A stretch of DNA of 41,804 bases, taken from IMG/VR virus record IMGVR_UViG_3300024895_000001, positions 1-41,804 of that record. The stretch is one strand, 5' to 3'. Of the stretch, positions 7,122-33,699 are shown in pieces (within the stretch, counting starts at the first letter, position 1; each line of letters opens with the position of its first letter). Source of the stretch: a virus. Made by a program: the position numbers and the translations under genes. Under the pieces are notes generated by a model that did not search any database, was not told the DNA's origin, and worked only from the letters and a program-made list of their open reading frames with translations.

Positions 7122-7611
7122 CGTCACCGCTAAGATCCATGGCCTCGACGACCTCAAGCGCGTCCTGGACGAACTGCCCAAGCAGCTGCGCAGGAAGGTT
7201 GTGCTCGGCGCGCTCCGCAAGGCTGCCCGGGTGCCGCTGCAGGCCGCGCGTCAGGTTGTCCCGGTCATGTCGTCCGCCGATGCGGCGAAAGCGCCGTATC
7301 GCACCCCGGGGCTGATCAAGCGGCGCCTGATGGTCCGGGCCAGCAAATCGTCCGGCCGGGCCGGGAATGTCGGTGTCTTCATCAACGTCAAGCCGCTCAA
7401 GACGGCAGCTATTCGCGGCTTCAGGCGGATAGGCGGCAAGTCAAGCCAGAACCCGGTCGATCCGTTCTACTGGAAGTTCGTCAACTTCGGCACCCGGAAG
7501 ATGCAGAAAACCGACTTCATGGCCAAGGCGGCCGATGCTTTGCCGCAGGCGCTGGAAGTTTTCAAGGCCCAGATCGCCCCGGTCATCCAATGGTGGAACA
7601 GTCGCAAATGA
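7111..7611 (+). CDS. HK97 gp10-family tail-attachment/neck protein
   Basis: The N-terminal ...TAKIHGLDDLKRVLDELPKQLRRKV... resembles HK97 gp10-family proteins. ATG 7111 overlaps the upstream stop. In-frame alternative starts exist at 7069 and 7099. Confidence 0.65.
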   Translation: MVDSVTAKIHGLDDLKRVLDELPKQLRRKVVLGALRKAARVPLQAARQVVPVMSSADAAKAPYRTPGLIKRRLMVRASKSSGRAGNVGVFINVKPLKTAAIRGFRRIGGKSSQNPVDPFYWKFVNFGTRKMQKTDFMAKAADALPQALEVFKAQIAPVIQWWNSRK

Positions 7612-7964
7612 GCGCCGAAACCCAACTCTATGCCGCCCTGTCTGGCTGGACGGGCCTGACCGATCTGGTCGCCAACCGTATCTATCCGGATGCCATTCCG
7701 GAAAACGTCGATCTCCCGGCCGTCGTCTATGTCCGGGCCGGAACCAACCCGACCTACACCATCGGCGGCGCGCTGGTCTGCGAAGACGTCCGGATGGCTG
7801 TCACCGTCTGGGCGCCAACCCGCACCGAAGCAGAAGCCGTTGCCGATCAGGTACGGCTGGCTATCGATGGCAGCGGCAACCCGGTCGCCAATCGCTCCGG
7901 AGGTTTCGACAATGAAGTCGGCTTGTTCGCTGTCACCATCGAAACCGACTGGTTTTTCACGTAG
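7608..7964 (+). CDS. Tail completion/terminator-like protein (DUF3168-like)
   Basis: ATGA overlap with the upstream stop. The sequence LYAAL.....LTDLVANRIYPD.IPE...LPAVVY resembles DUF3168 tail components. Position is just before the major tail gene. Confidence 0.6.
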   Translation: MSAETQLYAALSGWTGLTDLVANRIYPDAIPENVDLPAVVYVRAGTNPTYTIGGALVCEDVRMAVTVWAPTRTEAEAVADQVRLAIDGSGNPVANRSGGFDNEVGLFAVTIETDWFFT

Positions 7965-7983
7965 CACCGCAGCACCAACAACC

Positions 7984-8007
7984 AACCGCCTCCGGGCGGT
8001 TTTTTTA
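7984..8007 (+). terminator. Rho-independent terminator-like hairpin (aaccgcc-tccg-ggcggtt + T7)
   Basis: 7-bp GC-rich stem, 4-nt loop and a run of 7 T read directly. It sits between the head/neck genes and the major tail gene. Confidence 0.7.
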
Positions 8008-8027
8008 CGTCCATCGAAAGGTAAATC

Positions 8028-8669
8028 ATGGCCACTGCAAAGAAATGGTCGAACGTCGCTGTAGCAATGCAGTCGGCGCTCGCAGCTGCAATCACTATCA
8101 CCGGCATCTCCAAGGCTGCCGAAGGGGTGGTGACCGCAACAAACACTCTCGTCGCTGGCGACTTCGTTGTCCTGTCCGTTCAGGGCATGCGCCAGGTCGA
8201 TGACCGGGTATTCCGAGTCAAGTCGCCGACAGGTAGCAACTTCGTCCTGGAAGGCGAAGATACCACCCTGTTCGACACCTTTACCTCGGGAACCTGCCAG
8301 AAAATCACTTTCGGCACCTCGATCACCACGGCGACCAGCCTGTCCAGCTCCGGTGGCGAGTTTGACTTCCTGGATACCACCACCATCCATCAGGCTGCTC
8401 GCTCGCAGATGCCTGGCCTTCCGTCGGCTGCTTCGTTCAGTTTTGACAATATCTGGGACGTTTCCGACGCCGGCCTGAAGGCGATGAAGTCCGCTTCCGA
8501 TGCCCAGGCAAAGCGTGCCTTCATGTTCACCTTCGGCGCCGGTGGACAGATCATGGTCTTCAACGGCTACGTCGGTGCCTCCCTGCTGCCCGGCGGTTCG
8601 GCGCAGCAGCTGGTGACGACAAAGACGACGATCACCATGAACGGCACCCCGACCTACTACGCGAGCTAA
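8028..8669 (+). CDS. Major tail (tube) protein
   Basis: 213-aa ORF directly upstream of the G/GT chaperone pair and tape measure. It is preceded by a terminator and the RBS aaaggtaaatc. Confidence 0.7.
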   Translation: MATAKKWSNVAVAMQSALAAAITITGISKAAEGVVTATNTLVAGDFVVLSVQGMRQVDDRVFRVKSPTGSNFVLEGEDTTLFDTFTSGTCQKITFGTSITTATSLSSSGGEFDFLDTTTIHQAARSQMPGLPSAASFSFDNIWDVSDAGLKAMKSASDAQAKRAFMFTFGAGGQIMVFNGYVGASLLPGGSAQQLVTTKTTITMNGTPTYYAS

Positions 8670-8672
8670 CCC

Positions 8673-9008
8673 ATGAGCCTTGCCGAAAAAATCCGCAAGG
8701 CTCGGGAAGTGAAGGTGGAAGCCGGTGGCTTCTCCTTCACCGTCCGGCGTCCGACGGCCCTTGAAATGATGGAGCTGCAAAAGCAATCCGCGGCCCGTGC
8801 TGTCATCCCCTTCGTTGTTGGCTGGGGAGAAGAGGTCACCGAGCTTGCCATGTTCGGCACCGGTGCACCGCACCCCGTGCCCTTCGATCCGGCTGTCTGC
8901 TTCGAATGGCTGCAGGATCGCCTCGACCTTCTTGCCGTGCTCATCAAGGCCGTCTTCCAGGCCTACGAAGATCACCAGGTCAAGCTGGCGGAACTCACAA
9001 AAAACTGA
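8673..9008 (+). CDS. Tail assembly chaperone (gpG analogue)
   Basis: 111-aa acidic ORF between the major tail and tape measure genes. It ends ACA AAA AAC TGA with a slippery heptamer. Confidence 0.75.
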   Translation: MSLAEKIRKAREVKVEAGGFSFTVRRPTALEMMELQKQSAARAVIPFVVGWGEEVTELAMFGTGAPHPVPFDPAVCFEWLQDRLDLLAVLIKAVFQAYEDHQVKLAELTKN

Positions 9009-9214
9009 CGGCGTGGCTTGAGGGGCAAGACCTGCCGGGAGCCCTCAAGCCCGCCCACCAATCACCGGAAGTCGGGCTGGCCATTCACGCATGGAATCTG
9101 TGCGGCGGCATGGACTGGTCCGCCATTCCTGTCGTTGCTGAAATTCTCGGCTACGCCGACATCGAGCTGCTGATTGCCCAGCTAACGGTGATCAGAGACC
9201 ACCCAAAGGAATAG
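8673..9214 (+). CDS. Tail assembly chaperone frameshift product (gpGT analogue; -1 shift at 8999-9005)
   Basis: The -1 frame is open from the slip site to 9214 and reads ...KKLTAWLEGQDLPG.... The frame goes from phase 0 to phase 2, which is a -1 shift. Confidence 0.7.
8999..9005 (+). promoter_or_regulatory. Programmed -1 ribosomal frameshift slippery heptamer A_AAA_AAC
   Basis: The X_XXY_YYZ pattern is in the correct zero-frame register (AC[A AAA AAC] TGA), 3 nt before the G stop codon. Confidence 0.7.
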
Positions 9215-9217
9215 ACC

Positions 9218-11527
9218 ATGGCCCTCGCGACGCTATCCATCGACCTGGAAGCCAAGCTCGCCAGCCTGGAGCGCGACTTCGCCCGCGCCTCCCGGCTCGC
9301 CGAAGACAATGCCCGGCGCATTCAGTCCTCCTATGCCAATGTCGGCAAGACGTTTCAGGAACTGGGCGCCACGCTGGCCGGTGCGGTCGGCGTCAACTTC
9401 ACCGTCTCGCTGGTGCAAAGCGCCATCGATGCCCAGGACCACCTGAAAGACCTGAGCAAATCGACCTCCCTGACTGTCGAGCAGTTAGCCGGCCTCAGCT
9501 CCATGGCCAACAAGACCGGCACCGATATCGACGGCATCGCCGATTCGATCAACAAGCTGTCGGTCAACATGGGCAAGGATTCTGAGAAGTTCGCCAAGAT
9601 CGGGATCAGTGCCAAAGACCCCATCGAAGCCTTCAAGCAGCTCGCCGACATCTACAACGCCATCGAAGACCCGCAAACCCGCGCCGCCTTCGCTGCCGAA
9701 GCCCTGGGCAAGTCCTGGAAGTCCGCCGCCCCGGCGCTGTCCGAGGGCGGCAAGGCGATTGGCGAGATGGTCGAGCGTGGCCAGAAGCTGGCCGGGATCA
9801 CCAAGGAAACGGCGGATCGCGCCGATGAGCTGAACGACACCATCACCGATTTGAAAGGTGTGGTCGGCGGGTTGGCGACAAAGTTTGCCAATAGCCTGGT
9901 GCCATCGTTGACGGATACGGCCAAGGAAATGACCAAAGCGATCGAGAAAGGCGACTCGCTATGGGCGCTACTGCGCGGTCTTGCTGGTCTTGGCAAGCTT
10001 CCTTTTGACGCGATCTTTGGCGACATCGATATGTCGCAAGGCGCGTTTCAGAGAGACCTTGAGAACACGCTGGCTCAATTGGAAGGGCAGCGCAAACAGG
10101 TTGACGCCAATGGTGGGCTGCTCAACAAATGGCTGTATGGCTCAACCGAAGAGCTCGACAAGAAGATACTCGTCACGCGCAACCAACTGGAAGCGCTGAA
10201 GAAATTCGGCGACAAAATGACGGCGCCGGTTTCTGAGGTGGCGCCTACCAACCCTGCGAAAAAGCCAAATAGAAGGGCCGTAAGGAAATTTATCGATGGC
10301 GATGAAGAAAAGGCAAAATCCGACCCCCACGCCAACGACTACACCGCGCTGATCCGTTCGCTGAACGAAAAGATCGCCGTCCAGACCGAGGATCTGCAGA
10401 GCGTCGAGCAACTCACCCAGGCGCAGAAGGATTACGCCAAGTACCAGGCCGACATCGCCTCCGGTGCCGTGGTCCTGACCGAGGCCCAGAAGCAGGTCGC
10501 CGGGTCGTTCTGGGAAGTCTATCTCGCCCGTACCAAGCAGAACGAAGCCGAGAAAGCCGGCGAGAAAGCCGGCGCGCTGGTCGATGACTACAAGCGCGGC
10601 AACGCCATCATCCTGGAGCGCATCGCCCGAGAGCAGGAACTGGCCCTGATGACCGACCGCCAGCGCACCATCGCCGAAGCGCTGTATCGCGTCGAAGACG
10701 ACGGCCAGAAGATCCGCGAGCGCATCATTCATGACATCCAGGACGAAACCGCGCAAAAGATCGCCCTGGCCAGGGCCGAAGAAGAACTGGCTGTCCAGAA
10801 AGACAAGGTTTCCGAAGCCGTCGCCCGCAGCTTCGATCAACAGCGCGATTTCGAATTCGGCTGGAAGAAAGCGTTCCGTTCATACGAAGATGAAGCCACC
10901 AACGCCGCCAGGAACGCCGAAAGCATCTATCGCACCGCCACCGATTCCATGGCCGAAGTCGCCACGCGATTTGCCATGGGGCAAAAGGCTACCTTCAACG
11001 ACATCGCCGGCAGCTTCATGCAGATGATCATCAAGATGCAGATGCAGGCTGCCGCCTCCGGCTTGATGGGCTATCTGAACAACGCTTTCGGCTTCGGCGC
11101 CAAAGCCACGCCGACAGGCCTGGATTCCTTGCCATCGTCGGTCAATACAACCTTCAGCGCCCTGGGGAACGTCTTCACCTCGCCGTCGCTGTCGGCCTTC
11201 TCCGGAACTGTTGTGTCCAAGCCGACGACGTTCTGGGCCAATGGCGGCAACGTCATGGGCGAGGCTGGCCCGGAGGGGATTTTCCCGCTGAAACGTGGAA
11301 AAAACGGGAAGCTCGGCGTATCCGTCGAAGGCGAGGCTGGCATATCGGTCGTCATCAATAACAACGGCACCCCGCAAACCGTGACTGGCCAGCGTCAGGT
11401 CGTCGATTCACGGGGTCGGCGATCGCTCATGCTTGATTTGTCCGATGCCATTGCCGGCCAGCTCTCCACGCCCGGCAGCGCCGTCAATCGCGCTGGCCGC
11501 TCGCCAACCATGATCCGGAGGGGCTGA
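9218..11527 (+). CDS. Tape measure protein
   Basis: 769-aa largely helical ORF immediately after the G/GT pair, with a Gly/hydrophobic C-terminal part. Confidence 0.85.
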   Translation: MALATLSIDLEAKLASLERDFARASRLAEDNARRIQSSYANVGKTFQELGATLAGAVGVNFTVSLVQSAIDAQDHLKDLSKSTSLTVEQLAGLSSMANKTGTDIDGIADSINKLSVNMGKDSEKFAKIGISAKDPIEAFKQLADIYNAIEDPQTRAAFAAEALGKSWKSAAPALSEGGKAIGEMVERGQKLAGITKETADRADELNDTITDLKGVVGGLATKFANSLVPSLTDTAKEMTKAIEKGDSLWALLRGLAGLGKLPFDAIFGDIDMSQGAFQRDLENTLAQLEGQRKQVDANGGLLNKWLYGSTEELDKKILVTRNQLEALKKFGDKMTAPVSEVAPTNPAKKPNRRAVRKFIDGDEEKAKSDPHANDYTALIRSLNEKIAVQTEDLQSVEQLTQAQKDYAKYQADIASGAVVLTEAQKQVAGSFWEVYLARTKQNEAEKAGEKAGALVDDYKRGNAIILERIAREQELALMTDRQRTIAEALYRVEDDGQKIRERIIHDIQDETAQKIALARAEEELAVQKDKVSEAVARSFDQQRDFEFGWKKAFRSYEDEATNAARNAESIYRTATDSMAEVATRFAMGQKATFNDIAGSFMQMIIKMQMQAAASGLMGYLNNAFGFGAKATPTGLDSLPSSVNTTFSALGNVFTSPSLSAFSGTVVSKPTTFWANGGNVMGEAGPEGIFPLKRGKNGKLGVSVEGEAGISVVINNNGTPQTVTGQRQVVDSRGRRSLMLDLSDAIAGQLSTPGSAVNRAGRSPTMIRRG

Positions 11528-22873: not shown

Positions 22874-23391
22874 TGCTGGATGATCTCCATGAAGCGTTGG
22901 TAGAAGAGCAGCTCGGCGCGGTTGCTGTTGATGGCGATCAGCTTGGCGTCCATGGGGCGGACGCCGGTGAGGATCGGCCAGTCTGTGTCATCGTCAGGCA
23001 TCAAGTCGCGGCGCTCGGTGGCCAGCATGGTGCGGTCGGCGCTGGTGACCTGGTCGCTCTGTGATTCAGGAAGGCCGAAGCGGGTGCGGATCACGGCCTG
23101 CAGCTTGTCCTCGATGCGGCGATAGTCCGGCAACAGCTGCTTGAGTGGGCGCGGAATGTCCTTGATGTAGGCCTCGCTGGCGTCGTGCAGCAGTGCCTCA
23201 AGGGCAAACTGCTGATCGACGATCCTGCTGGCGACGACGCTGTGCTGGGCGACGGTGTAGTAGTACTTGGTCTGGCCGGCGAAGCGGGATTCCCGGGAGA
23301 GGCCCTTGATGATGTCCTCGATGCGGATCATGTCAGGCTGCGGGTCGATCAGGTCGATGTGGCGGCCTGAGTGGGTTAGTAGCCAGGTCAT
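22870..23391 (-). CDS. HD-domain phosphohydrolase
   Basis: ATG 23391 overlaps the methylase stop (ATGA). It has ...VAQHSVV...ALLHDASEAYIKDIP... (H...HD...D pattern). Confidence 0.65.
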   Translation of the reverse strand: MTWLLTHSGRHIDLIDPQPDMIRIEDIIKGLSRESRFAGQTKYYYTVAQHSVVASRIVDQQFALEALLHDASEAYIKDIPRPLKQLLPDYRRIEDKLQAVIRTRFGLPESQSDQVTSADRTMLATERRDLMPDDDTDWPILTGVRPMDAKLIAINSNRAELLFYQRFMEIIQQ

Positions 23392-25223
23392 GCTGCTCTC
23401 CGTGTGATAGACATTTCTGGAAGATTGGCGCGAACAAGTGCGGCGGCCAAAGGCGGGCAAACGCTGTTGCCGCACATGCGAACCTGCGCCGATTTGGTCA
23501 GGTTGATGCGCTGGCCGTTGTGATCGATGCCCCATTCCGTGATGTAGCTATCGGGGAAACCTTGGGCTTTGAAAAGCTCCTTCGGCGCCAGCATGCGCAG
23601 GCCTATGTCGGCGATCTGGTATTCCTCGCCGGCCACCGTGACGAGGCCGTAGCGGTCCTTGGTGGTGACGGTGTGAAGGGGTTCCTGCAGGTTCGGGTCT
23701 TGGTCGGTGCCGTAGTACTTGATCAAGAAGGCGCGGACCTCGGCGAAGTGGGTTCCTTGGGCGCTGACGGTATGAAGCGGCTCGCCGATTGGCTGGCCGT
23801 CTTGGCTGGTGCCGCGCAGCTTGACCAAGTTGCTGGTGACAATGCCGGCGGTCGCACCGTTGGCGGTGATGGTGTTGATCGGCTGTTCGATGTCACGGAT
23901 GCCGTGGCTGAATCGTTTGCCACCGTCTTGGCCTTCGCCGTGGCCCATGTGGATCAGGTTGGCGGTGACCAGGCTGTTGTGGTCGGTGCTGGTAACTGTG
24001 TGAAGCGGCTCGCCTTGCAGGCTGTGACCAACAACACCACCGTAGTGCTTCGCCATGAAAGCAGATACCAGCGCGTGTTTCTGGCTTCCGACAAGCGTTC
24101 CAAGCGGCTTTTCGATGTCCAGCGCCCTTGGCGCCTGGCCGTCGCGTTCGCCGTAGCCGGTTTGAACCAGGGTCGGCGCGATCAGCGCATGGTGGCCGCC
24201 CTTGGTCTGGGCGCAGATAGTGCGCAACGGCTCGTCAGCCGGCATGCTGCGCGGTGAGGATGCGTTGGCATGCTCAGTCAGAACTGGTGCGACCAAAGCC
24301 ATTTCGCCGCGGTGGGCAGCCGTGATTGTTGGAATGGGCTGCTCCATCGGATAGCGACGGTCGGCGCCCTGGTGTGTAAGCGGGACGATGAACGGCTCGG
24401 ATTCATCGACGACGTAGCGCATGATGCCCTTGGCAATCCGGCGCAACGTGGCCGGCGCAAGTTCGCGCTTGCGCTCAAAAATCGACGGACAAGGAATCGA
24501 CCAGTCGATGCACTCGGCAGCAGTGCGCCACGGCTGCATAACGACGCCATCCGGATTAAGGATGCGGTCTTTGCGGCCCTTGAAGCGCTTGTCAGCGGGG
24601 TCGTAGTGCGTTGCTTCCGGCCAGACAATCGGCTGACCATCTCGACGGGCGATCAGGAACAGGCGCTTGCGGATCGTCGGCGTACCGTAGTCGCAGGCGC
24701 GCAGCTCGCGGTGCTCGATCTGGTATCCATGGCGGCGCAGGGCGTTGCAGAAGGCATTGAACTCGCGGCCCTTGTTCTTCGGGCATGGCCGGGCCTTTCC
24801 ATCGCTATCAACGATCAACGGGCCCCAGGTGCGGAATTCTTCGACGTTCTCCAGCATGATGACGCGCGGCTTGGCGACGGCTGCCCATCGCAAAGCGACC
24901 CAAGCGAGGCCGCGAATCTTCTTCTCGACGGGCTTTCTGCCCTTGGCCTTGCTGAAATGCTTGCAGTCTGGGGAAAGCCAGACCAGACCTACGGGGCGCC
25001 CATGCGTGACTTCGCGCGGGTCGATTTCCCAGACGCTTTCGCAGTAGTGCTTCGTCTCTGGGTGGTTCGCCGTGTGCATGGCGACGGCTTCCGGATCGTG
25101 GTTGATGGCAATGTCGACGCGCCGGCCGAGCGCAAGCTCGATGCCGGTTGAGGCGCCACCGCCACCGGCAAAGTTGTCGATGATCAACTCGCCGTGAATG
25201 TCGAGATTTAGCTGCAGGGTCAT
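23388..25223 (-). CDS. DNA (cytosine-5)-methyltransferase with expanded, internally repeated target-recognition region
   Basis: Motif I is DNFAGGGGAS, motif IV SPDCKHFS, motif VI MLENVEEF, motif VIII TIRKRLFLIA and motif X GNSVCPPL. About 330 aa between motifs VIII and IX hold about 7 repeats of the [EQK]P[LI].T[ILV] module. Confidence 0.85.
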   Translation of the reverse strand: MTLQLNLDIHGELIIDNFAGGGGASTGIELALGRRVDIAINHDPEAVAMHTANHPETKHYCESVWEIDPREVTHGRPVGLVWLSPDCKHFSKAKGRKPVEKKIRGLAWVALRWAAVAKPRVIMLENVEEFRTWGPLIVDSDGKARPCPKNKGREFNAFCNALRRHGYQIEHRELRACDYGTPTIRKRLFLIARRDGQPIVWPEATHYDPADKRFKGRKDRILNPDGVVMQPWRTAAECIDWSIPCPSIFERKRELAPATLRRIAKGIMRYVVDESEPFIVPLTHQGADRRYPMEQPIPTITAAHRGEMALVAPVLTEHANASSPRSMPADEPLRTICAQTKGGHHALIAPTLVQTGYGERDGQAPRALDIEKPLGTLVGSQKHALVSAFMAKHYGGVVGHSLQGEPLHTVTSTDHNSLVTANLIHMGHGEGQDGGKRFSHGIRDIEQPINTITANGATAGIVTSNLVKLRGTSQDGQPIGEPLHTVSAQGTHFAEVRAFLIKYYGTDQDPNLQEPLHTVTTKDRYGLVTVAGEEYQIADIGLRMLAPKELFKAQGFPDSYITEWGIDHNGQRINLTKSAQVRMCGNSVCPPLAAALVRANLPEMSITRRAA

Positions 25224-26176
25224 ACTTCCACCTCTTCACCAAGGCTGCCGGCCGGGTAGAAGACGATGGCCGGGCCAGAAGTTTCAATTTCGGCCTTTTT
25301 TTCGGCCTGACCGTAGCTTTCCGTGTCGCCAAGCTCCGGCGACAGCGTGCCCATGATTTCGAATTCAATGGCCTGCTGGCGGGTGATGCGGAAGCCGGCG
25401 GCGTGTTTGTGGCCGCCACCGCCGAAGCGCTTGGCGATGGTTTCGACGTTGGCGCCGTCTGGTGCTGAGCGCAGGGAGAAGCGGCGGCCGTCTTCGTCGT
25501 CGTAGTAGGTGGCGGCGAACGGGTTGCCTTCGGCCAGCCTGGCACCAACGTCGCTGGCGAACATCCATGGGGCGTTGGCGGCCGGTATGTGGGTGCCGGC
25601 GATGTTGATCCAGCGGGTGGCGTTGTCGGCGATGGCGGCGACGTCGGCGCTGTGCTTGCGGATCAGGCTGCGGCCTTCGCGCTCGAGCTCGACCGGCGGC
25701 ATGGTCATCAGCTGATCCCAATGCTCGAAGGTCATCGGGTAGGAAAACACGGCAGCCATGATTTCCCGTGTCATGGGCAGCTTGAACTGCCACAGGTCGC
25801 GGTCCTGGATGTGATCGAACAGCAGCGGCTGCATTTCGCCAGGGAACAGGTGTTGCCAGGTGAGTGCGGCGCCGCATTTGGTGTTGTCGAAGATGGCGCG
25901 GGCTTTGGCCGGCAGGTCTTGCAGATCGGCCTGCGAGGTGTCGTGGTGGTCGATGATTAGCACGTCGTTGGCTTGTTCGATAAGCTGCAGCATGACGTCG
26001 CGTTTGTAGCTGAAGTCGACAATGATGACGTTGCGGCCGGTGACGTCGGGCGGGGCTTTGCCGTAGATTCCGGGGTGGAATTCGACGAGGCCGGCATGAA
26101 AGCGGCGAACGGCCCAGGCTGCGGCAAAGCCGTCGGTGCAGGCGTGGTGGTAGATGCAGAGCGGCAAGTGAGTCAT
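25220..26176 (-). CDS. DHH-family phosphoesterase (DHH + DHHA1-like, GGGH motif)
   Basis: The motifs are CIYHHACTDG..., ...IIDHHDT..., and ...FGGGGHKHAAGF. ATGA overlaps with both the RT stop and the methylase start. Confidence 0.7.
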   Translation of the reverse strand: MTHLPLCIYHHACTDGFAAAWAVRRFHAGLVEFHPGIYGKAPPDVTGRNVIIVDFSYKRDVMLQLIEQANDVLIIDHHDTSQADLQDLPAKARAIFDNTKCGAALTWQHLFPGEMQPLLFDHIQDRDLWQFKLPMTREIMAAVFSYPMTFEHWDQLMTMPPVELEREGRSLIRKHSADVAAIADNATRWINIAGTHIPAANAPWMFASDVGARLAEGNPFAATYYDDEDGRRFSLRSAPDGANVETIAKRFGGGGHKHAAGFRITRQQAIEFEIMGTLSPELGDTESYGQAEKKAEIETSGPAIVFYPAGSLGEEVEV

Positions 26177-27543
26177 GCTGATTTCCTATAGGTCTTGGAT
26201 AGGTCGGATTTGATGCTGTGGCCGCGCTGGCGCAGGGTGTTGGCGAGCAGGGCGCGGTCGTGGTGGCTGTGGCTGGCCTGGCGGAGCAGGCCGAAGTAGC
26301 TGTTGCCGGTGGCGAACAGGTCGGCGGCCGGCATTGCCCTGGTGCGGCCGATGGCGTCGTTGAAGGTGCGCCGGCGCAGGGTGCGGCGGTGGGGCTTGAT
26401 GACCTGGCCGACGAAGTCAATGCCACGGTCGATCGGCTGCAGGATGGTTTTCTTGGGGTTGATGCGGGCGGCCAGTTGGTCGGCAAGCAAGGTCTCGATC
26501 TTGGCCTTGGCGGCGTTGAGCCATTGGGGCGATTCGTGGAGCAGGACGAAGTCGTCGACGTAGCGGATGTAGTGCTTGGCGCGTAGTTCGTGTTTGACGA
26601 ACTGGTCGAGCACGTCGAGATACACGTTGGCGAAGAACTGGCTGCTCAGGTTGCCGATGGGCAGGCCTTTGTGGGCGGGCTGGTTGGTCAGGCGCTTGTG
26701 GGGTGGTACCAGATCCAGTTGGCGGGGGTCGCCGTGCAGTTCGTAGTTCTGGCGCGGGTCGTGGAAAAGGACGGCCTCGGTCAGTTGCAGCCACCAGTGC
26801 TCGGTGATGTGCCGGGCGAGCAGGCGCTGCAGGATGTTCTTGTCGATGCTGACGAAGAAGTTGGCGAGATCCAGCTTCAGGTAGAAGGCGGGCTTGGTCC
26901 AGTTCTGGGTGATGCTGCGCACCTTGGCTTCGAGCCGCTGGGCAGCGTAGAGGGTGCCGCGGCCGGGGATGCAGGCGCAACTGTCGGCGATGAAGCGGGT
27001 GTAGAAGCGCGGCGAGATATGGTTGTGCAGCAGGTGGTGCACGATGCGGTCGCGGAACTGGCCGGCCCAGACTTCGCGGGCCTTCGGTCGGGTGATGACG
27101 AAGCAGATGGAGCGGCCGGGTTGGTAGCTGCCGTCTTCGAGTTCGTCATGCAGTTCGCGCAGGTTGTGTTCCAGGTTGGCTTCGAAGGCCAGCGCACTGG
27201 CGCTGTTGCGCTTGGTGCGCCGGCAGTCGAAGTAGGCTTGTACCAGTTCGGTAAAGGTGAAATCAGCGGGTGCTTTCCAATCTGCGGACGGCACGAGCAC
27301 GGAGCTCGTTGTTCTTGTGGTTGTTGTTCTGGTTGCCGTTGTTGAAGTTCTGATACCAGGCGTAGCCGGAATCGGACCTGTCGTGCTTTCTACGTCGCCC
27401 GGCCGACTGTTCAGCGGGGAAACTGCGCCGGACCTTTCCTGCGTGCTGCAGGAGGTCTCCGGGGTGCGCATGTCGGTGGCCTCGTGAGCCAGCGGCACGA
27501 CCAGATTGAATATGCGCTCAGTCATGGCGGCCTTGACCTCCAT
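26173..27543 (-). CDS. Diversity-generating retroelement reverse transcriptase
   Basis: Its RT motifs include LKLDLANFF, the DGR-typical LPIGNLSSQFFANVYL, and YIRYVDDFVLL. It is preceded by Avd and TR. The most plausible start is 27525 (GGAGG upstream), and 27543 and 27471 are also in frame. Confidence 0.9.
   Translation of the reverse strand: MEVKAAMTERIFNLVVPLAHEATDMRTPETSCSTQERSGAVSPLNSRPGDVESTTGPIPATPGIRTSTTATRTTTTRTTSSVLVPSADWKAPADFTFTELVQAYFDCRRTKRNSASALAFEANLEHNLRELHDELEDGSYQPGRSICFVITRPKAREVWAGQFRDRIVHHLLHNHISPRFYTRFIADSCACIPGRGTLYAAQRLEAKVRSITQNWTKPAFYLKLDLANFFVSIDKNILQRLLARHITEHWWLQLTEAVLFHDPRQNYELHGDPRQLDLVPPHKRLTNQPAHKGLPIGNLSSQFFANVYLDVLDQFVKHELRAKHYIRYVDDFVLLHESPQWLNAAKAKIETLLADQLAARINPKKTILQPIDRGIDFVGQVIKPHRRTLRRRTFNDAIGRTRAMPAADLFATGNSYFGLLRQASHSHHDRALLANTLRQRGHSIKSDLSKTYRKSA
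27278..27377 (-). repeat. DGR template repeat (TR), ~100 bp, AAC-rich on the sense (minus) strand
   Basis: It aligns ungapped to three VRs, and every mismatch is at a + strand T, which is a sense-strand A. In the VR frame it encodes ...GYAWYQNFNNGNQNNNHKNNELRARAVRRL. Confidence 0.9.
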
Positions 27544-27892
27544 GAAGCGGGCGCGATGCGGACTTGCGCCACCCGTTGGCCTGCTTCCCGATGCTGGTGG
27601 TGAGTTCGACGGCGCGGGCGTAGCCGTCCTTGCTGATGAGGTGCTTGTCCATGGACAGGCGCAGCATCAGCTCGGCGACCTGCAGGCGCTCGACCAGTTC
27701 CAGCAGATGCGGTGCCTTGTCCTGGGCGACGTTGGCCCGGAAGATCAGCACCGTGATTTCGATGCACTCGGTGCTGATCTTGTCGCCGATAGATCGCTTG
27801 AAGTCTCGCTGCATGTTCTTGACGAGACTGGTGACGACATCGAGCAGGTCGTAGGCGACCTTGTAGATGGGAAGATGGGTATGGGTGGCCAT
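27518..27892 (-). CDS. avd: DGR accessory variability determinant (Avd; four-helix-bundle family)
   Basis: 124 aa. MATHTHLPIYKVAYDLLDVV...ITVLIFRAN...LLELVERLQVAELMLRLS... resembles Avd/23S-rRNA-IVS four-helix-bundle proteins. It lies between the target gene and TR/RT. Confidence 0.8.
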   Translation of the reverse strand: MATHTHLPIYKVAYDLLDVVTSLVKNMQRDFKRSIGDKISTECIEITVLIFRANVAQDKAPHLLELVERLQVAELMLRLSMDKHLISKDGYARAVELTTSIGKQANGWRKSASRPLHGGQGRHD

Positions 27893-27910
27893 GCTGATTA
27901 AATGATCGAA

Positions 27911-28378
27911 TTACTCAATGATCAATCTGCGGACGGCACGAGCACGGAGCTCGTTGCGCTCGTGGTAGTAGCGCTGGCGGCCGTTGCCGAAGTCCTGACA
28001 CCAGGCGTAGCCGGAATCGGACTCATTGGCTTCGCAGGACCAGTACCAACGGTCTTCGAACTGGTCTTTGAGGTTGGCGTAGAGCAGCGATTGTTCGCGG
28101 CGGGTGGGCAGGTTTCCGCCTTTGGCTTGTGCCCACTTCCATGCGTCTTCCCAGTTGATGTCGTCGGCCTGGCCGGGGAGAAGCACCAGGTGATAGCTGG
28201 GCTCGCCATCCTTGCCAACGATCAGGCCGGCGTAGTGTTCGCCGGGGTGCAAATGGATGGTGACTTCGGGGAAGTAGAACTCGGCGGCAAGCTGGTTGGC
28301 CTGGGCTTCGAAGGTGGCGATCTTGGCGGCCAGTGCATCGGCGTCGGCCTTGATCTGTTCAAGCGTGATGGTGGTCAT
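27911..28378 (-). CDS. DGR target protein 1 (DUF1566/Lcl-C-terminal, C-type-lectin-fold-like) with C-terminal VR1
   Basis: 155 aa with ...GGNLPTRREQSLLYANL...WYWSCEANESDSGYAWCQDFGNGRQRYYHERNELRARAVRRLIIE. VR ends 12 nt before the stop. Confidence 0.85.
   Translation of the reverse strand: MTTITLEQIKADADALAAKIATFEAQANQLAAEFYFPEVTIHLHPGEHYAGLIVGKDGEPSYHLVLLPGQADDINWEDAWKWAQAKGGNLPTRREQSLLYANLKDQFEDRWYWSCEANESDSGYAWCQDFGNGRQRYYHERNELRARAVRRLIIE
27923..28022 (-). repeat. DGR variable repeat VR1
   Basis: 100-bp ungapped match to TR with 13 mismatches, all at TR adenines (sense strand). Confidence 0.9.
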
Positions 28379-28402
28379 AGCGTCCTCGAAATGACTGAAT
28401 GA

Positions 28403-28762
28403 TTAAATGGGCAATCTGCGGACGGCACGAGCACGGAGCTCGTTGTCCTTGCGGCGGTAGAGCTGGTCGCCGTCGTTGAAGTACTGAAACCAGGCGTAGC
28501 CGGAAGCGGAATGGTGCTGCTCGTTGCTCCAGTACAAGTCTTTGTTGAACTGGTCGCGATGGTTGGCCCAGAGCATGGCCTGCTCGATGCGGTTGGGCAG
28601 ATCACCGCCGATGGATTTGGCCCAGTCGATCTGGGCTTGCCATTCGGCGTCGTCGTTGTCGCCAGGGAGCAGGATGAGGTGATAGACCTCGCCGGATGTG
28701 TCGCCAATGGCGCCGATGTAGGTTTCGCCTTCGGCAAGCGGGGGGGGTTGAAGTTGTTGCAT
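28403..28762 (-). CDS. DGR target protein 2 (DUF1566-like) with C-terminal VR2
   Basis: 119 aa with ...GGDLPNRIEQAMLWANH...LYWSNEQHHSASGYAWFQYFNDGDQLYRRKDNELRARAVRRLPI. Confidence 0.85.
   Translation of the reverse strand: MQQLQPPPLAEGETYIGAIGDTSGEVYHLILLPGDNDDAEWQAQIDWAKSIGGDLPNRIEQAMLWANHRDQFNKDLYWSNEQHHSASGYAWFQYFNDGDQLYRRKDNELRARAVRRLPI
28412..28510 (-). repeat. DGR variable repeat VR2
   Basis: About 99-bp ungapped match to TR with 12 mismatches, all at TR adenines. Confidence 0.9.
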
Positions 28763-28783: not shown

Positions 28784-29764
28784 TTAATTGGGTTGAGCAG
28801 TCAGCTGGTCGAGCGTCCCGCCGTTGGTGATCCAGAATTCAACCCACTTGGGCTGCCGGCCTCGGCCGCTCCAGGTGAGTTCTCGGTTCTGCGGATGGAT
28901 ATATTTGGCGCCGATCATGTTGGCGAAGCGGGTGCTGTTATCCGGCTCCTGCTCTGGTGATGGCATGCCTTGTTCGGCGTTTTTCTCGGCTTGTTCCTTG
29001 AGTAGATCAAGGAATGCGAGGCGCTTGATGTCAAGATTCTCGGTCAGCACAAAGCTGATTCTGTCGTCCCAAGTGAGGGCGAGCTTGGTAGGTAGTTTTC
29101 CGCTGGCAAGGTCAGCGCGGACGCGCTCGGTTTCGATTGGGCAGCGCTTGTAGGAAACGGCGGATTTATCCTCGCCAGCGGATTGCAGTTCGCAGTCTCT
29201 ATCGATAGTGAATCCGGCTGGTGCTTCACCGCCGGCAAGCCAGTCGGCCATGGCTGAGGTCGGTGAAATAGTGCTATGGAGCGGCAGTAGCGGGAAATCG
29301 TCGAGCGAGTGGCGGAGTAGTTCGATAAGCTCGGCTGCTTGGCTGGCGCTGCCGTCGATGGCAAGCCATCCGTTATCTCGGTCGATCCAGGCAAACGTAT
29401 TGCGCCGCTTGGTAAAGGCGCGCGGCATCAGTTCTTCTGTCACGCGCTCTTTGAGTTCGCGGAGCTGCTTGCGGCCAGGTGCGTGGCCTTGTTCATCGGT
29501 CAGCTTGTCGGCCCTGGCGCTGACTTCGTCGTTGATCACCGAGGCGGGAAGCAGGCGCTGCTCAATGGTCAGGGCGATCAGCCACTGGCGATTCTGGGTG
29601 TAGGCCAGTGCGCCATCCTTGCGTGGTGATGTCCATCCCTTGCTGGTGGCTTGATGGGAGGCGCAATGGGCAAACATGGCGCGAGCCAGTTGTTCTTCAA
29701 GTTGCCCTGGCGTGATTTTCCAGTCGGATTTCAGGCGATAGACCTGGAGGTTTTTGAAGAACAT
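28784..29764 (-). CDS. rdgC: RdgC-like recombination-associated protein fused to a C-terminal H-NS-type DNA-binding domain
   Basis: The N-terminus MFFKNLQVYRL... and ...LLPASVI..., ...LMPRAFTKRR..FAWID..NGWL resemble RdgC. The C-terminus AKYIHPQNRELTWSGRGRQPKWVEFWI...GGTLDQL matches the H-NS/MvaT TWxGxGRxPxW motif. The start at 29764 shares one base with the upstream stop. Confidence 0.7.
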   Translation of the reverse strand: MFFKNLQVYRLKSDWKITPGQLEEQLARAMFAHCASHQATSKGWTSPRKDGALAYTQNRQWLIALTIEQRLLPASVINDEVSARADKLTDEQGHAPGRKQLRELKERVTEELMPRAFTKRRNTFAWIDRDNGWLAIDGSASQAAELIELLRHSLDDFPLLPLHSTISPTSAMADWLAGGEAPAGFTIDRDCELQSAGEDKSAVSYKRCPIETERVRADLASGKLPTKLALTWDDRISFVLTENLDIKRLAFLDLLKEQAEKNAEQGMPSPEQEPDNSTRFANMIGAKYIHPQNRELTWSGRGRQPKWVEFWITNGGTLDQLTAQPN

Positions 29765-30549
29765 CAGATAGCCTCTTTGAATTCTATGGTCGTGGTCTTT
29801 TTGCAGCGAGCGGTGCCGACCGGGATCAGCGCGAGAACATCGGCTCGACCTGCGGCCTTGGCGGCAGATTTGGCGGCTTCTACAGCCCGTTCCGGCTTGG
29901 CGCAAAGACGCGGCTTACGCTTTGGTACGCGGATGACGTAGCCGATGGCTACATCCTTGATGTCGACAGGCGGTTCGTCGGTCTCAGCGCTGGTTTTGTG
30001 CAGCGATTCAAGACGGTTGCGCAGCTGGTGATAGCCTTCGCAGCCGTAGGCCTGGGCCACGTCTTGCCAGCATTGCAGGGCGCTCTCTGCCAGGGCAAGC
30101 TGGTTTTTGTAGTCCTCAGCGGTCGCGAAGTGTTCGTCGCGCTGCATCTCTGCGTTGCGGAGTTGTTCGCGAAGTTCTACGGCGGCGTTGTGTCGATCTA
30201 CAGCAATTTCTACGGCGCGCCGTTCGATCGTTTCGGGTGCTTGGCGTTGAATCTGGCGGCGACCTGGCTCCTTCTTCTGCAGCGGATTGCGGCGCGATTC
30301 TGAGCGGTGTTCGGATACCCACTTCGGCCAGTCGGCGGCAACGACGGCAGACGAGAGCCGCCATTCGATGGTGTCTTGCTGGCCCGGGCGTTTGACCGTG
30401 CTGGTGACGACGAACCCGCTGGCGACTGCTGCGTTCATGGTGCCGCTCAGTTGCTTGTGCTCGATACCGGCGGCTTGGGAGAGTTCGGCAGAACGGATGC
30501 CCGGCCGCTTTTCAATGATGTTGAGGGCTTTCTGGGTTTTAGTTTCCAT
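29764..30549 (-). CDS. Hypothetical protein (N-terminal winged-helix-like, central coiled coil)
   Basis: 261-aa ORF with a good start context. No family was recognised. Confidence 0.55.
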   Translation of the reverse strand: METKTQKALNIIEKRPGIRSAELSQAAGIEHKQLSGTMNAAVASGFVVTSTVKRPGQQDTIEWRLSSAVVAADWPKWVSEHRSESRRNPLQKKEPGRRQIQRQAPETIERRAVEIAVDRHNAAVELREQLRNAEMQRDEHFATAEDYKNQLALAESALQCWQDVAQAYGCEGYHQLRNRLESLHKTSAETDEPPVDIKDVAIGYVIRVPKRKPRLCAKPERAVEAAKSAAKAAGRADVLALIPVGTARCKKTTTIEFKEAI

Positions 30550-30574
30550 GGTGGCGATCAGACGAAAAGGTTGA

Positions 30575-30826
30575 TCAGTACGAACGAGGTGCTGGGTCGG
30601 GAAGGCCGCGGTCGATCAGCGTCGTGCTCTGTGCATCAATCAGTCGCTTGTGCCTTGCATGAGCCTCCAATAGCTGCTTGCTAAGGTGGTTGATCTGGAT
30701 CTGGATCGCATCGCGCTCATCAAGCAGGCCTGATAGCGATAGCTGCAGATCAGTGATCATTGCCTCCTGTGATTTGATACGCAGGCCAAAGAAGACGCGG
30801 TAAATCCACTCGATCAGGCGGCGCAT
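30575..30826 (-). CDS. Hypothetical small protein
   Basis: ATG 30826 is preceded by GGAGG. 83 aa, coiled-coil-like. The longer 175-aa ORF call is Arg/Pro-rich and looks like a spurious extension. Confidence 0.5.
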   Translation of the reverse strand: MRRLIEWIYRVFFGLRIKSQEAMITDLQLSLSGLLDERDAIQIQINHLSKQLLEAHARHKRLIDAQSTTLIDRGLPDPAPRSY

Positions 30827-31014
30827 GGCATAGCCTCCAGGTAGGCTGTGGCTGGGGTCTTGATCTTGACGGCCAGCTTGACCCAGCCGGCAGGAACGAC
30901 AGGCGATACCACGGCGCGGCGACCGTTGGTGATGATGTGCCAGCCGCGGACCTTGGCGGCCTGGGCGATTTCTTCGAGCAGTGCGTCGTCGGGAACGATT
31001 TGGGCGATGATCAT
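30814..31014 (-). CDS. Hypothetical small protein
   Basis: ATG 31014 is preceded by GGGAGG. 66 aa (MIIAQIVPDDALLEEIAQAAKVRGW...). Confidence 0.5.
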   Translation of the reverse strand: MIIAQIVPDDALLEEIAQAAKVRGWHIITNGRRAVVSPVVPAGWVKLAVKIKTPATAYLEAMPCAA

Positions 31015-31217
31015 GATGCCTCCCTGGTTGAAATGGATTTGAAGGCCCGGTAGTTGGGTTGTTGTTCGGCCAGCCGCATGGATTCCTCCGGGCTGCTGGC
31101 AATGACGGTGGCGACTACCTTCCTGGCCGATTGATTGGCGTTCAGGCAGGATTTGCGGTGCATGGTCACTTCGTAGGGGCGTGGGGAGCATCTGGTTTTC
31201 ATGCTTGGCTCTGGCAT
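31011..31217 (-). CDS. Hypothetical small protein
   Basis: 68-aa ORF whose stop overlaps the next start (ATGA). The start is uncertain. Confidence 0.35.
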   Translation of the reverse strand: MPEPSMKTRCSPRPYEVTMHRKSCLNANQSARKVVATVIASSPEESMRLAEQQPNYRAFKSISTREAS

Positions 31218-31786
31218 GGCGCTGTGTTTGCCGCGGCCTCGGCGGCGACAATGCGGTCAAAGAGTGCGGCGGCTTCGATGGTGATCGGGTGCAGGACTGC
31301 ACGCTCAATGGCGCTCATGTCGTACGTGGTTATTTCAGGCGCTATCCTGTTTTTTGCCGCCCGATAGGCCATGGATTTCGCGATGGATTCCAGTGCCTCT
31401 GCCAGCTCTGTCTGCATGACCTCGGCCATTGGTTTTCTGAAATGCCCGCCGGTGCGAATGAGCGACAGAATGTAGTTGTCCGAGTAGTCGTGCTTCATCA
31501 CGGCCAGCTTCTGCACGGTAGTTTCCATGGGCAGCGTGGCGGCGAGCCGCCTTGCTTCTGGGAGCGCCTTGCGGATGTCGTCTTCCATGCGATTTTCTTC
31601 AGCCTTGGCTACATTGGCAGCCTGTATGGCTTCCCTGGCTTGTGCCTCGATGATCGTGGCGGCTTTGCTCAGGGCGAGGCGCTCTGCTTCATTGGAGATG
31701 GATTCGGCCAGTTTGCGGACTTGTGTAGCCGTCCGGCGAAGCGCCGATCCTTTGTCCTTGATGGACTGCGATTGGGTCTTGGTCAT
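31199..31786 (-). CDS. Hypothetical protein
   Basis: About 195 aa from MTKTQSQS... (the ORF maximum starts at 31813). Helical, with no family recognised. Confidence 0.5.
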   Translation of the reverse strand: MTKTQSQSIKDKGSALRRTATQVRKLAESISNEAERLALSKAATIIEAQAREAIQAANVAKAEENRMEDDIRKALPEARRLAATLPMETTVQKLAVMKHDYSDNYILSLIRTGGHFRKPMAEVMQTELAEALESIAKSMAYRAAKNRIAPEITTYDMSAIERAVLHPITIEAAALFDRIVAAEAAANTAPCQSQA

Positions 31787-31793
31787 GTTTCGC

Positions 31794-31910
31794 TCAGTGC
31801 TGGATCGGGGCAATTGCCGGGATGCTCATGGTCTTCTCGAAGCCCATTCCCATGAACGACAGGGCGGTGCGACGGTAGAAGGCGCGCTGCTGTTGTTCGG
31901 TGTGGGTCAT
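31794..31910 (-). CDS. Possible 38-aa ORF (MTHTEQQQRAFYRRTALSFMGMGFEKTMSIPAIAPIQH)
   Basis: ATG 31910 is preceded by GAGG within the conserved post-VR block. It is below the ORF-track cutoff. Confidence 0.3.
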   Translation of the reverse strand: MTHTEQQQRAFYRRTALSFMGMGFEKTMSIPAIAPIQH

Positions 31911-31931
31911 GTCAGCCTCGAAATGACTGAA

Positions 31932-32282
31932 TTACTGAATGATCAATCTGCGGACGGCACGAGCACGGAGCTCGCCGCGCTTGCGGGTGTCGTCCTGGTA
32001 GCCGTAGCTGAAGTGCTGATACCAGGCGTAGCCGGAAACGGACTCAGCGCTCGACCAGTACCAGGTCTGTTCGAACTCTTCCTTGGCAGTGGCGAATAGC
32101 AGGGCCTGCTCGACGCGGTTAGGCAAGCCGCCGCCTTGCTTGGCAGCCCAGTTCATGGACTTCTTCCAGGTGCCCTGGAAGCTGCCTGGCAGCAGGATGA
32201 TGTGGGTTGTGGTGCCGTCAGCAGAGACGATGCCGCCGATGTAGCGTTCGCCATCGGCGAGGGGGATGGTGGGGTGGGTCAT
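31932..32282 (-). CDS. DGR target protein 3 (DUF1566-like) with C-terminal VR3; first gene of the early-left operon
   Basis: 116 aa with ...GGGLPNRVEQALLFATA...WYWSSAESVSGYAWYQHFSYGYQDDTRKRGELRARAVRRLIIQ. A GGAG RBS lies 8 nt upstream of the ATG. Confidence 0.85.
   Translation of the reverse strand: MTHPTIPLADGERYIGGIVSADGTTTHIILLPGSFQGTWKKSMNWAAKQGGGLPNRVEQALLFATAKEEFEQTWYWSSAESVSGYAWYQHFSYGYQDDTRKRGELRARAVRRLIIQ
31944..32043 (-). repeat. DGR variable repeat VR3 (about 3.4 kb upstream of VR2 in the operon)
   Basis: 100-bp ungapped match to TR with 13 mismatches, all at TR adenines. Confidence 0.9.
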
Positions 32283-32312
32283 GGTGGGCTCCGTTGATTG
32301 ATGTGCGGATTA

Positions 32313-32341
32313 ATTATCACGAACGCGATAATTATTGTCAA
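32313..32341 (-). promoter_or_regulatory. Early-left (PL-like) sigma70 promoter: TTGACA - 17 nt - GATAAT on the minus strand
   Basis: -35 is at 32341..32336 and -10 at 32318..32313, read directly. It lies about 30 nt upstream of the first minus-strand gene. Confidence 0.7.
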
Positions 32342-32355
32342 CGCAAATGCGATAA
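32314..32355. promoter_or_regulatory. Two repressor operators at the PL-like promoter (TTATCAC-gaac-GCGATAA; TCAACGC-aaat-GCGATAA), 24-bp phase
   Basis: They share the inverted-repeat half-site (TTATCGC/GCGATAA) with the cI/cro intergenic region. One covers the spacer/-10 and the other the -35. Confidence 0.65.
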
Positions 32356-32404
32356 TTTTGGCGGGATATGCTCACGCTCGGATTTTCGGGTGGCTGAAAA
32401 TGGT

Positions 32405-32432
32405 ACAAAAAAGCCCGCGCTCGGCGGGCTTC
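32405..32432 (-). terminator. Rho-independent terminator ending the repressor/TerB-BRCT transcription unit
   Basis: The minus strand reads agcccgcc-gagc-gcgggct followed by TTTTTT. It lies about 45 nt downstream of the 32474 stop. Confidence 0.7.
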
Positions 32433-33177: not shown

Positions 33178-33627
33178 TCAATTCGCAGCGTTTCCTTTAT
33201 TGATTCTGGGGAACTGATCGGCTAGATTCTGCGCGTGGGCGATGAGGCGATGCAGTCCGGCGTCATTGATATGCGAGGATACCTCTGCCAACTCGGCCAG
33301 TAACGGTGATGGAAAGCTGACAATCTCGGCGGGAGACGGCTCGGCGGCGGTGAGCTGGCGTGGATTCCGGGATGTCGCGATGCCATATTCGCGATCCGCC
33401 GGTGGAGCCGATATCGGCTCTTGCTTCCCCTTGCCGGTCTTCAGCCAGTATGCGTCGACGCCGAGCGCATGCGCTATTTCAATAAGCGACGATGGCATCT
33501 TTTGCCGTGCCCCTTTTTCGATTCCGTTAATTGTTGATTGTGCAACACCTGCTTTTTTGGCGAGCTGATCCTGTGTCAGCTCAAGCGCAGTGCGTAATCT
33601 GGTAACACGTTCGCCGGTGGTTTCCAT
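33178..33627 (-). CDS. Phage repressor (CI analogue): XRE-family HTH, no S24 peptidase domain
   Basis: RLRTALELTQDQLAKKAGVAQSTINGIEKG is an HTH. It is divergent from the cro-like gene across an operator-rich 72-bp region. At 149 aa the C-terminus is too short and dissimilar for a LexA-like protease. Confidence 0.75.
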   Translation of the reverse strand: METTGERVTRLRTALELTQDQLAKKAGVAQSTINGIEKGARQKMPSSLIEIAHALGVDAYWLKTGKGKQEPISAPPADREYGIATSRNPRQLTAAEPSPAEIVSFPSPLLAELAEVSSHINDAGLHRLIAHAQNLADQFPRINKGNAAN

Positions 33628-33691
33628 ATCGCGATTGTGCTAATAAATGATATCGCAAAGGCGTTGACGTGACTTATCGCAATCGCGATAA
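33626..33691. promoter_or_regulatory. Three 18-bp operators (O3 33626-33643, O2 33650-33667, O1 33674-33691) spaced exactly 24 bp start-to-start
   Basis: O1 is TTATCGC-aatc-GCGATAA (perfect palindrome arms). O2 is ATATCGC-aaag-GCGTTGA. O3 is ATATCGC-gatt-GTGCTAA and overlaps the repressor ATG. Confidence 0.7.
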
Positions 33692-33692
33692 T
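33664..33692 (+). promoter_or_regulatory. Early-right (PR-like) promoter: TTGACG - 17 nt - GATAAT
   Basis: Read directly. The -10 ends 7 nt before the cro-like ATG (33700) and there is no Shine-Dalgarno between them. Confidence 0.7.
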
Positions 33693-33699
33693 CATCGCC

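Follow-up and report, generated by a model that had tools for sequence, protein, structure and literature searches.

The locus described here raises the question of whether a 100-nt variable repeat, VR3, which lies 4.7 kb upstream of the reverse transcriptase (RT) gene of a phage, is a genuine recipient site of the diversity-generating retroelement (DGR) encoded by that phage or merely resembles one. The window, by which we mean the entire 41,804-nucleotide stretch of DNA that was analysed, represents the complete, circularly permuted genome (41.8 kb) of a temperate siphophage, encoding a terminase, portal, major head protein, tape measure, J-like tail protein and integrase. An independently assembled 41.7-kb contig (JGI 3300004184) is 100% identical to it over the 20.4 kb retrieved, the match wrapping round the ends of the window. 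The closest RT found in a genome, that of a Dechloromonas prophage, is 86% identical, and other relatives occur in Betaproteobacteria; the host is predicted to be a Rhodocyclales-like betaproteobacterium. A repeat of approximately 100 nt is present in four copies in the window, all on the minus strand, as anchored on a shared 30-nt block. These copies, together with the genes which contain or adjoin them, are as follows.

27278-27377, minus strand: TR (template repeat), the adenine-rich copy, with 29 A in 100 nt.
27923-28022, minus strand: VR1, inside target gene 1.
28412-28511, minus strand: VR2, inside target gene 2.
31944-32043, minus strand: VR3, a 100-nt variable repeat at the 3' end of the ORF at 31932-32282.
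31944-31973 (in VR3), minus strand: invariant, GC-rich, IMH-like 30-nt 3' block, GAGCTCCGTGCTCGTGCCGTCCGCAGATTG, identical in the TR and all three VRs.
27911-28378, minus strand: target gene 1, encoding 155 aa that include an additional helix-like segment at the N terminus; contains VR1.
28403-28762, minus strand: target gene 2 (119 aa); contains VR2.
31932-32282, minus strand: target gene 3 (116 aa), a stand-alone C-type-lectin-fold protein (Lcl_C/DUF1566-like) whose ORF is closed by VR3.
27518-27892, minus strand: Avd accessory protein (PF22296 bAvd, 44.5 bits versus a cut-off of 40; phrog_3206 'Avd protein of DGR', E=3e-30).
26173-27543, minus strand: reverse transcriptase ORF (PF00078, 59.6 bits; phrog_1423, E=2.5e-112).

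A total of 13 mismatches separate VR3 from the TR, each of them (13/13) at a TR adenine (hypergeometric P = 9.5e-9), and the two repeats are identical at all 71 non-adenine positions. Comparable patterns were apparent for VR1, in which 13/13 mismatches are located at adenines, and for VR2, in which 12/13 are so located and the remaining one falls at the 5' homology boundary (P about 1e-8 in each case). Each of the three VRs forms with the TR the pair, differing at TR adenines, by which a DGR is recognized, and the VRs are mutually different at these adenine sites. Nearly all TR adenines (28/29) occupy codon positions 1 or 2 of the VR reading frame, most of them within AAC codons. When the whole genome was searched for matches to the TR region, VR1, VR2 and VR3 were the only ones returned, and the complete circular genome harbors a single TR and a single RT. 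VR2 and VR3 are spaced 3532 nt apart, start to start, and VR3 corresponds to the non-adjacent target of a phage DGR in the sense of Wu et al. (2018). The initial annotation, which had proposed that three paralogous targets, including a remote one, depend on a single TR, and that VR3 retains the 100-bp scaffold, an invariant 3' block and 13 adenine-only substitutions, was thus borne out by the four repeat copies, the sole TR, the 30-nt block common to all copies and the 13/13 count.

Homology between the TR and the VRs ends at ...GATTG, the sequences diverging only beyond this point. A GC-rich, IMH-like block is present, as in other DGRs, but it does not separate the IMH (of the VR) from the IMH* (of the TR), the two being identical. 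Any distinction between donor and recipient must, therefore, lie in the 3' flank, as predicted by Wu et al. (2018) for such cases, where IMH equals IMH* and recognition must extend downstream (PMC5758913). The 3' flanks of the VRs contain the following arrays.

31921-31947, minus strand: phased array of four ATT units, spaced by 7, 8 and 8 nt (ATTGATC ATTCAGTA ATTCAGTC ATTT), after VR3.
27900-27926, minus strand: array of the same geometry, after VR1.
28389-28415, minus strand: array of the same geometry, after VR2.

No such array follows the TR; that of VR3 starts in the last VR3 bases and spans the stop codon. The comparative set comprised 80 IMG/VR loci and 80 genome loci with related RTs; in the window, and also in loci L001 to L161, three to five phased direct repeats of approximately 8 nt, with a unit of about yCATTyA, are located after every VR and never after the TR. 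Self-identity at a lag of 8, calculated for 138 unique flanks, was 0.468 after VRs and 0.213 after the TR, compared to 0.272 +/- 0.007 when shuffled, and chains of (A/C)TT units spaced 7-9 nt apart averaged 3.7 units for 121 adjacent VRs and 3.9 for 18 remote VRs, as against 1.3 after the TR and 1.6 when shuffled. A degenerate array pattern produced three matches in the 41.8-kb window, each directly after a VR, where 0.09 were expected, and similar arrays follow the VRs of far more distant DGRs (RT 44-53% identical).

Efficient homing in Bordetella phage BPP-1 depends on a GC-rich hairpin/cruciform located downstream of the VR (PMC3240598), whereas folding of approximately 65 nt from the last VR bases yielded no GC-rich hairpin or cruciform after the VRs of the present phage (z-scores 0.1-1.1). 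Such inverted repeats are the only structures which Wu et al. (2018) described downstream of the IMH, with phased direct repeats unmentioned (PMC5758913); as they were found in just 34% of DGRs, the hairpin does not define membership. The literature searched yielded no report of phased 8-nt repeats after VRs, GC-rich inverted repeats being all that is described there. Two other readings of the 8-nt repeats were rejected: they do not act as three-frame stop codons, as the VR3 units give no stops in the other two frames, and, as judged by eye only, they do not fit the IHF site WATCAANNNNTTR. We tentatively put forward the possibility that the 8-nt array is the recipient-site mark of this clade. 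The array may stand in for the BPP-1 cruciform, or for the 3' part of the BPP-1 IMH, as AT-rich DNA which is easily melted or protein bound, and it represents a concrete candidate for donor/recipient discrimination in a hairpin-less DGR in which IMH = IMH*. If this were the case, the array could let any phage gene bearing it, wherever placed, be recruited as a target.

The RT belongs to the DGR clade. Its translation contains a YVDD motif and the sequence IGNLSSQ, an instance of the DGR-type [I/L]GxxxSQ motif, and its closest solved structure is 8ub7 ('Reverse transcriptase', E=2.9e-32), that of the BPP-1 bRT. Avd provides the accessory gene adjoining the TR and RT that is typical of a DGR; the NCBIfam equivalog model NF033474 scored this protein at 47.6 bits, under its cut-off of 80. 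Homology to known RTs starts near position 27240, and the open frame runs upstream across the TR, overlapping the end of avd, such that the TR appears to sit within a 5' extension of the RT ORF. The RT frame is open through the entire TR in 77/78 family loci, and a start codon between the TR and the start of RT homology is absent in 32/78, the window included. On the basis of its sequence, the system is a canonical DGR with one TR and three predicted recipient sites.

The three target proteins share 52-54% overall identity, target 1 possessing an N-terminal extension of approximately 35 residues which is absent from targets 2 and 3. The scaffold of target 3 preceding the VR exhibits approximately 47% protein identity to that of target 1, and orthologues of target 3 were found in the related loci L001, L002 and L164. 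These values support the view that target 3 is an old paralogue rather than a recent copy, and they uphold the suggestion of the initial annotation that the targets diverge outside the VR, most visibly at the N terminus of target 1, and form an expanded family as opposed to the product of a recent duplication. The Pfam Lcl_C matches of the targets are all sub-threshold (for target 3, E=2.4e-4, under the gathering score), and target 3 also matches phrog_4245. An AlphaFold2 model of target 3 was obtained with a pLDDT of 83.3 and a pTM of 0.79, confidence dipping over the VR loops. Foldseek returned 8q4e, the C-terminal domain of Legionella Lcl, as the best PDB match of this model (TM 0.64, probability 1.00), followed by C-type lectins. 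The predicted model, therefore, places the VR at the C terminus of a ligand-binding fold of the kind (C-type lectin or Ig) that DGRs are known to diversify.

Inspection of the translations revealed no signal peptide or lipobox in targets 1 to 3. Certain relatives of the target domain (P0115 and P0089; L166, 9001-9567) are fused at the N terminus to a Lar-type restriction-alleviation zinc ribbon (PF14354, 31.4 bits versus a cut-off of 28.6), and their lectin domain ends in ...LRARAVRRLIIQ. A further target-3-like protein, P0035 (142 aa, Logan), contains as its "VR" the unmutated TR sequence (YQNFNNGNQNNNHK), followed by out-of-frame sequence, and is most likely an assembly chimera of a VR and a TR.

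All parts of the DGR are located on the minus strand, in the leftward early/lysogeny arm of the genome, where the gene order is CI-like HTH repressor, a gene of 209-215 aa, terminator hairpin, promoter, target 3, cargo, target 2 and target 1, followed by avd, TR-RT, DHH phosphoesterase, C5 methylase and integrase. Targets 2 and 1 are positioned directly upstream of avd. The elements surrounding target 3 are listed below.

33178-33627: CI-like HTH repressor gene, just upstream of the target 3 promoter region.
32404-32432, minus strand: terminator-like hairpin and U-run (-16.6 kcal/mol, z = -2.6), which ends the upstream, repressor-side unit.
32311-32341, minus strand: promoter-like site TTGACA-17-GATAAT (11/12 matches), just upstream of target 3.
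28784-31910, minus strand: intervening cargo between targets 2 and 3, with six called genes (195, 63, 66, 83, 261 and 326 aa) and a 38-aa ORF.

A 24-bp palindrome, TAATTATCGCG-TT-CGTGATAATTA, overlaps the promoter-like site of target 3, and a third half-site is present at 32347-32357. A search for further operator copies in the window identified a single half-site with one mismatch (33684-33694), and three matches were reached in 2/100 shuffles. Target 3 is probably the first gene of a unit under repressor control, behind its own operator-flanked predicted promoter. The 38-aa ORF (31796-31910) is uncalled, so that the seven unrelated ORFs originally counted in the gap correspond to six or seven, depending on its inclusion; none of the cargo ORFs exhibits similarity to the targets. 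One cargo gene (28784-29764, minus strand) encodes an RdgC-family protein joined at its C terminus to an H-NS DNA-binding domain (PF00816, E=4e-13), an unusual fusion. Directly downstream of the RT (23388-26176, minus strand), a DHH/DHHA1 phosphoesterase gene (phrog_4771, E=8e-97) is located together with that of a C5 cytosine methyltransferase of 611 aa.

We consider it very probable that VR3, although not adjacent, is a true recipient site for the single DGR of this phage and is equipped to function as one. By analogy with BPP-1, the avd-TR-RT region would be transcribed, and the RT-Avd complex would copy the TR RNA to cDNA, misincorporating opposite template adenines; this cDNA would then replace any segment which combines TR homology, the GC-rich 3' block and a VR-specific 3' flank. 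The avd-TR-brt of BPP-1 can act in trans on a separate target (PMC5758913), and as the cDNA would likewise act in trans, a site 4.7 kb upstream of the RT would be served in the same manner as the two adjacent ones. The anticipated outcome is a set of three paralogous stand-alone lectin-fold proteins whose C-terminal residues (approximately 25) are recoded independently. The mechanism would, in these terms, be ordinary DGR retrohoming in trans within one phage genome.

The principal alternative is that VR3 is a fossil, i.e., a former DGR target which is now fixed and no longer rewritten. This is improbable, based primarily on a comparison of the remote VRs of four related lineages (the window, L001, L002 and L164). 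The TRs of these lineages differ from one another at six non-adenine positions, and the VRs of each lineage, the remote VR included, carry the base of their own TR. In pairwise comparisons of the orthologous remote VRs, differences were present at 8-15 of 25-26 adenine sites but at only 1-6 of 72-73 other sites, and every one of the latter changes (19/19) is mirrored by a change in the cognate TR. In contrast, the 230-nt scaffold upstream of the remote VR is 73-87% identical between lineages, i.e., it diverges by 13-27%, whereas no non-adenine mismatch separates VR3 from the TR over 100 nt. The proteins encoded by the target 3 orthologues are hypervariable exactly and only in the VR columns, and among 46 non-adjacent VRs of the related loci fetched, 645/695 mismatches to the cognate TR fall at adenines. 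The invariance of VR3 across relatives, which the initial annotation had named as the sign of a decayed target, is, therefore, not seen on an evolutionary time scale, the orthologous remote VRs differing mostly at TR-adenine sites. A site at which rewriting had stopped would drift like its scaffold; since the remote VR tracks its own TR instead, VR3 is probably still being rewritten rather than a relic. This provides strong comparative proof, at the level of sequence, that remote VRs continue to match the TR of their own lineage, and it is from such co-evolution that we infer the present-day activity of VR3. Furthermore, VR3 shares the cis features of VR1 and VR2, namely, full TR homology, the invariant 3' block, an intact frame and the four-unit 8-nt flank, while the predicted promoter of its ORF is similarly intact.

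Two observations could be taken to favor a fixed VR3. The first concerns three other contigs of the phage (JGI 3300004184, JGI 3300004175 and Logan SRR5429513), found by look-ups with target 3 and two neighbouring proteins, which match the window at 100% identity throughout the overlaps, also within the VRs; VR3 is consequently the same in all four contigs, but as these are identical at every overlapping base, they cannot tell an active from an inactive VR3. Breaks in the Logan contigs inside the 30-nt block were considered as a sign of heterogeneity, an interpretation which was rejected as repeats longer than k=31 explain them. The second concerns the near-clonal sister phages L001 and L169, between which all differences over approximately 12.7 kb are located inside VRs. 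In the adjacent VR1, 10 positions have changed, including 9 TR adenines, whereas the remote VR is unchanged. Confinement of the differences to VRs indicates that the DGR of this clade is active on short time scales, and remote sites may be homed less often than adjacent ones. Megablast of positions 26.0-33.2 kb against 50,697 GenBank phages detected no near-identical phage genome, and a degenerate VR3 query, in which each TR adenine was replaced by N and to which the VR3-specific flank was joined, had no match in metagenome or viral contigs. A looser pattern retrieved L167 and L168, which are 92% alike, have no RT on the contig and are too diverged to inform on variation.

It is highly unlikely that VR3 resembles the TR, VR1 and VR2 through ordinary paralogy combined with homologous gene conversion among lectin-fold genes, with no reverse transcription into the site. 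The VRs do have more than 30 nt of exact identity in common, on which such exchange could act, and VR-VR recombination may indeed occur, as the junction of a rearrangement in L169 lies in the shared block. Gene conversion would, however, leave unexplained the confinement of differences to adenines, both in VR3 and across the 46 remote VRs, as well as the abrupt rise, precisely at the TR boundary, from approximately 50% identity to complete agreement at non-adenine positions and the mutual differences of the three VRs at adenine sites. The L169 rearrangement itself (7070-11231, versus L001 6699-8845) is a tandem duplication of approximately 2 kb, with its junction in the shared IMH-like block. 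The extra gene that it creates is of the target 2 type, with adenine sites in a new pattern and a 3' flank of the target 3 type; the duplication may have come about by true VR-VR recombination or may stem from an erroneous join during assembly.

Some genomes harbor several DGRs (Wu et al. 2018, PMC5758913), and VR3 might, therefore, belong to another DGR, on the host chromosome or a co-resident prophage, and merely resemble the present TR. We regard this as extremely unlikely, given that the window, as a complete phage genome, contains a single RT and a single TR, that VR3 is identical to this very TR at every non-adenine position and that the remote VRs of relatives follow the private substitutions of the TR on their own contig. 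Finally, there is next to no likelihood that the remote copy is an artefact of a chimeric contig or collapsed repeat, as, even if assemblies at k=31 are broken by repeats that are identical over more than 30 nt and L169 may hold a mis-join, JGI contigs from two other samples (41.7 kb, 3300004184; 2.3 kb, 3300004175) have the same structure across VR3, the Logan contigs, broken inside the shared 30-nt block, are otherwise identical, and orthologous remote targets are present in L001, L002 and L164, with a remote target also in phage Magia.

The placement of VR3 as a non-adjacent recipient site is mirrored across the clade. Among the 61 loci whose RT shares 60% identity or more and for which 7 kb or more of upstream sequence was available, a non-adjacent, adenine-only VR was present in 14, and 15 contained three or four VRs. 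The adjacent targets form stable orthologous groups across the clade, whereas the remote targets are orthologous only among close relatives (the window, L001 and L002) and elsewhere have adjacent-type targets as their best matches. Remote targets appear, therefore, to have arisen repeatedly, and a single ancient remote paralogue common to the whole clade was rejected on the same grounds. In L164, the target 3 orthologue is located 1.2 kb from target 2, which indicates that the distance is set by mosaic cargo.

The layout is already known, both from the survey of Wu et al. (2018; PMC5758913) and from the Burkholderia cenocepacia phage Magia (MT701587, genes 44-47 and 57; PMC7883833). Wu et al. 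(2018; NAR 46:11) reported non-adjacent targets for 45/372 DGRs, the phage-associated ones being within the same prophage, and more than one target for about 15% of DGRs, while 'category d' (CLec2) targets were described as often being short, DUF1566-only proteins (PMC5758913). Magia encodes an RT which is 70% identical to the present one and, between its immunity region and integrase, likewise harbors a remote lectin-fold target, cargo, two adjacent short targets, Avd, TR and RT. It possesses three adenine-only VRs, one of which, in the remote gene 57, is placed 7.2 kb upstream of the RT, and 8-nt repeats follow each VR as they do here; genes 47 and 57 were named as DGR targets in the genome announcement (PMC7883833). 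Magia is, however, a myophage of Burkholderia, as opposed to a siphophage of a presumed Rhodocyclales-like betaproteobacterium, its cargo between targets specifies RecT, a nuclease and an ATPase in place of RdgC-H-NS, and the remote targets of the two phages are not orthologous.

The BPP-1 DGR (mtd-avd-TR-brt) resembles the present system in its RT-Avd pair, adenine-specific mutagenesis, GC-rich IMH and VR at the 3' end of a C-type-lectin-fold gene, yet it diversifies one target, a tail-fibre protein, compared to three small non-structural targets here, and its IMH* differs from its IMH. The Legionella pneumophila DGR (LdtA) shares the CLec2/DUF1566-type VR class, and that of Treponema denticola (TvpA and remote targets) shares the use of one TR for several dispersed targets (PMC5758913, PMC4891356). 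Both are cellular elements rather than phage encoded; LdtA is a surface lipoprotein with an export signal, which the present targets do not possess, and the remote Treponema targets are scattered over the chromosome, in contrast to their location within one phage operon here.

As to the function of the targets, they could act as cytoplasmic, early-expressed hypervariable binders (e.g., counter-defence or exclusion factors) and not as receptor-binding proteins, an idea which we regard as doubtful and which draws on three hints, namely, the absence of signal peptides, the promoter beside the immunity region and the relatives with a Lar-type zinc ribbon.

A third, non-adjacent VR is in itself consistent with textbook knowledge and adds little, particularly as a 70%-identical system has been annotated in an isolated phage. 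The value of the locus lies rather in the clade-level picture, in which remote VRs remain in register with their own TR and a periodic 3' flank marks the VRs but no TR. The parts most worthy of attention are this periodic VR flank and the non-structural, early-operon targets, which indicate that these phages diversify small lectin-fold proteins without a signal peptide, encoded in the early/lysogeny region, and not tail fibres.
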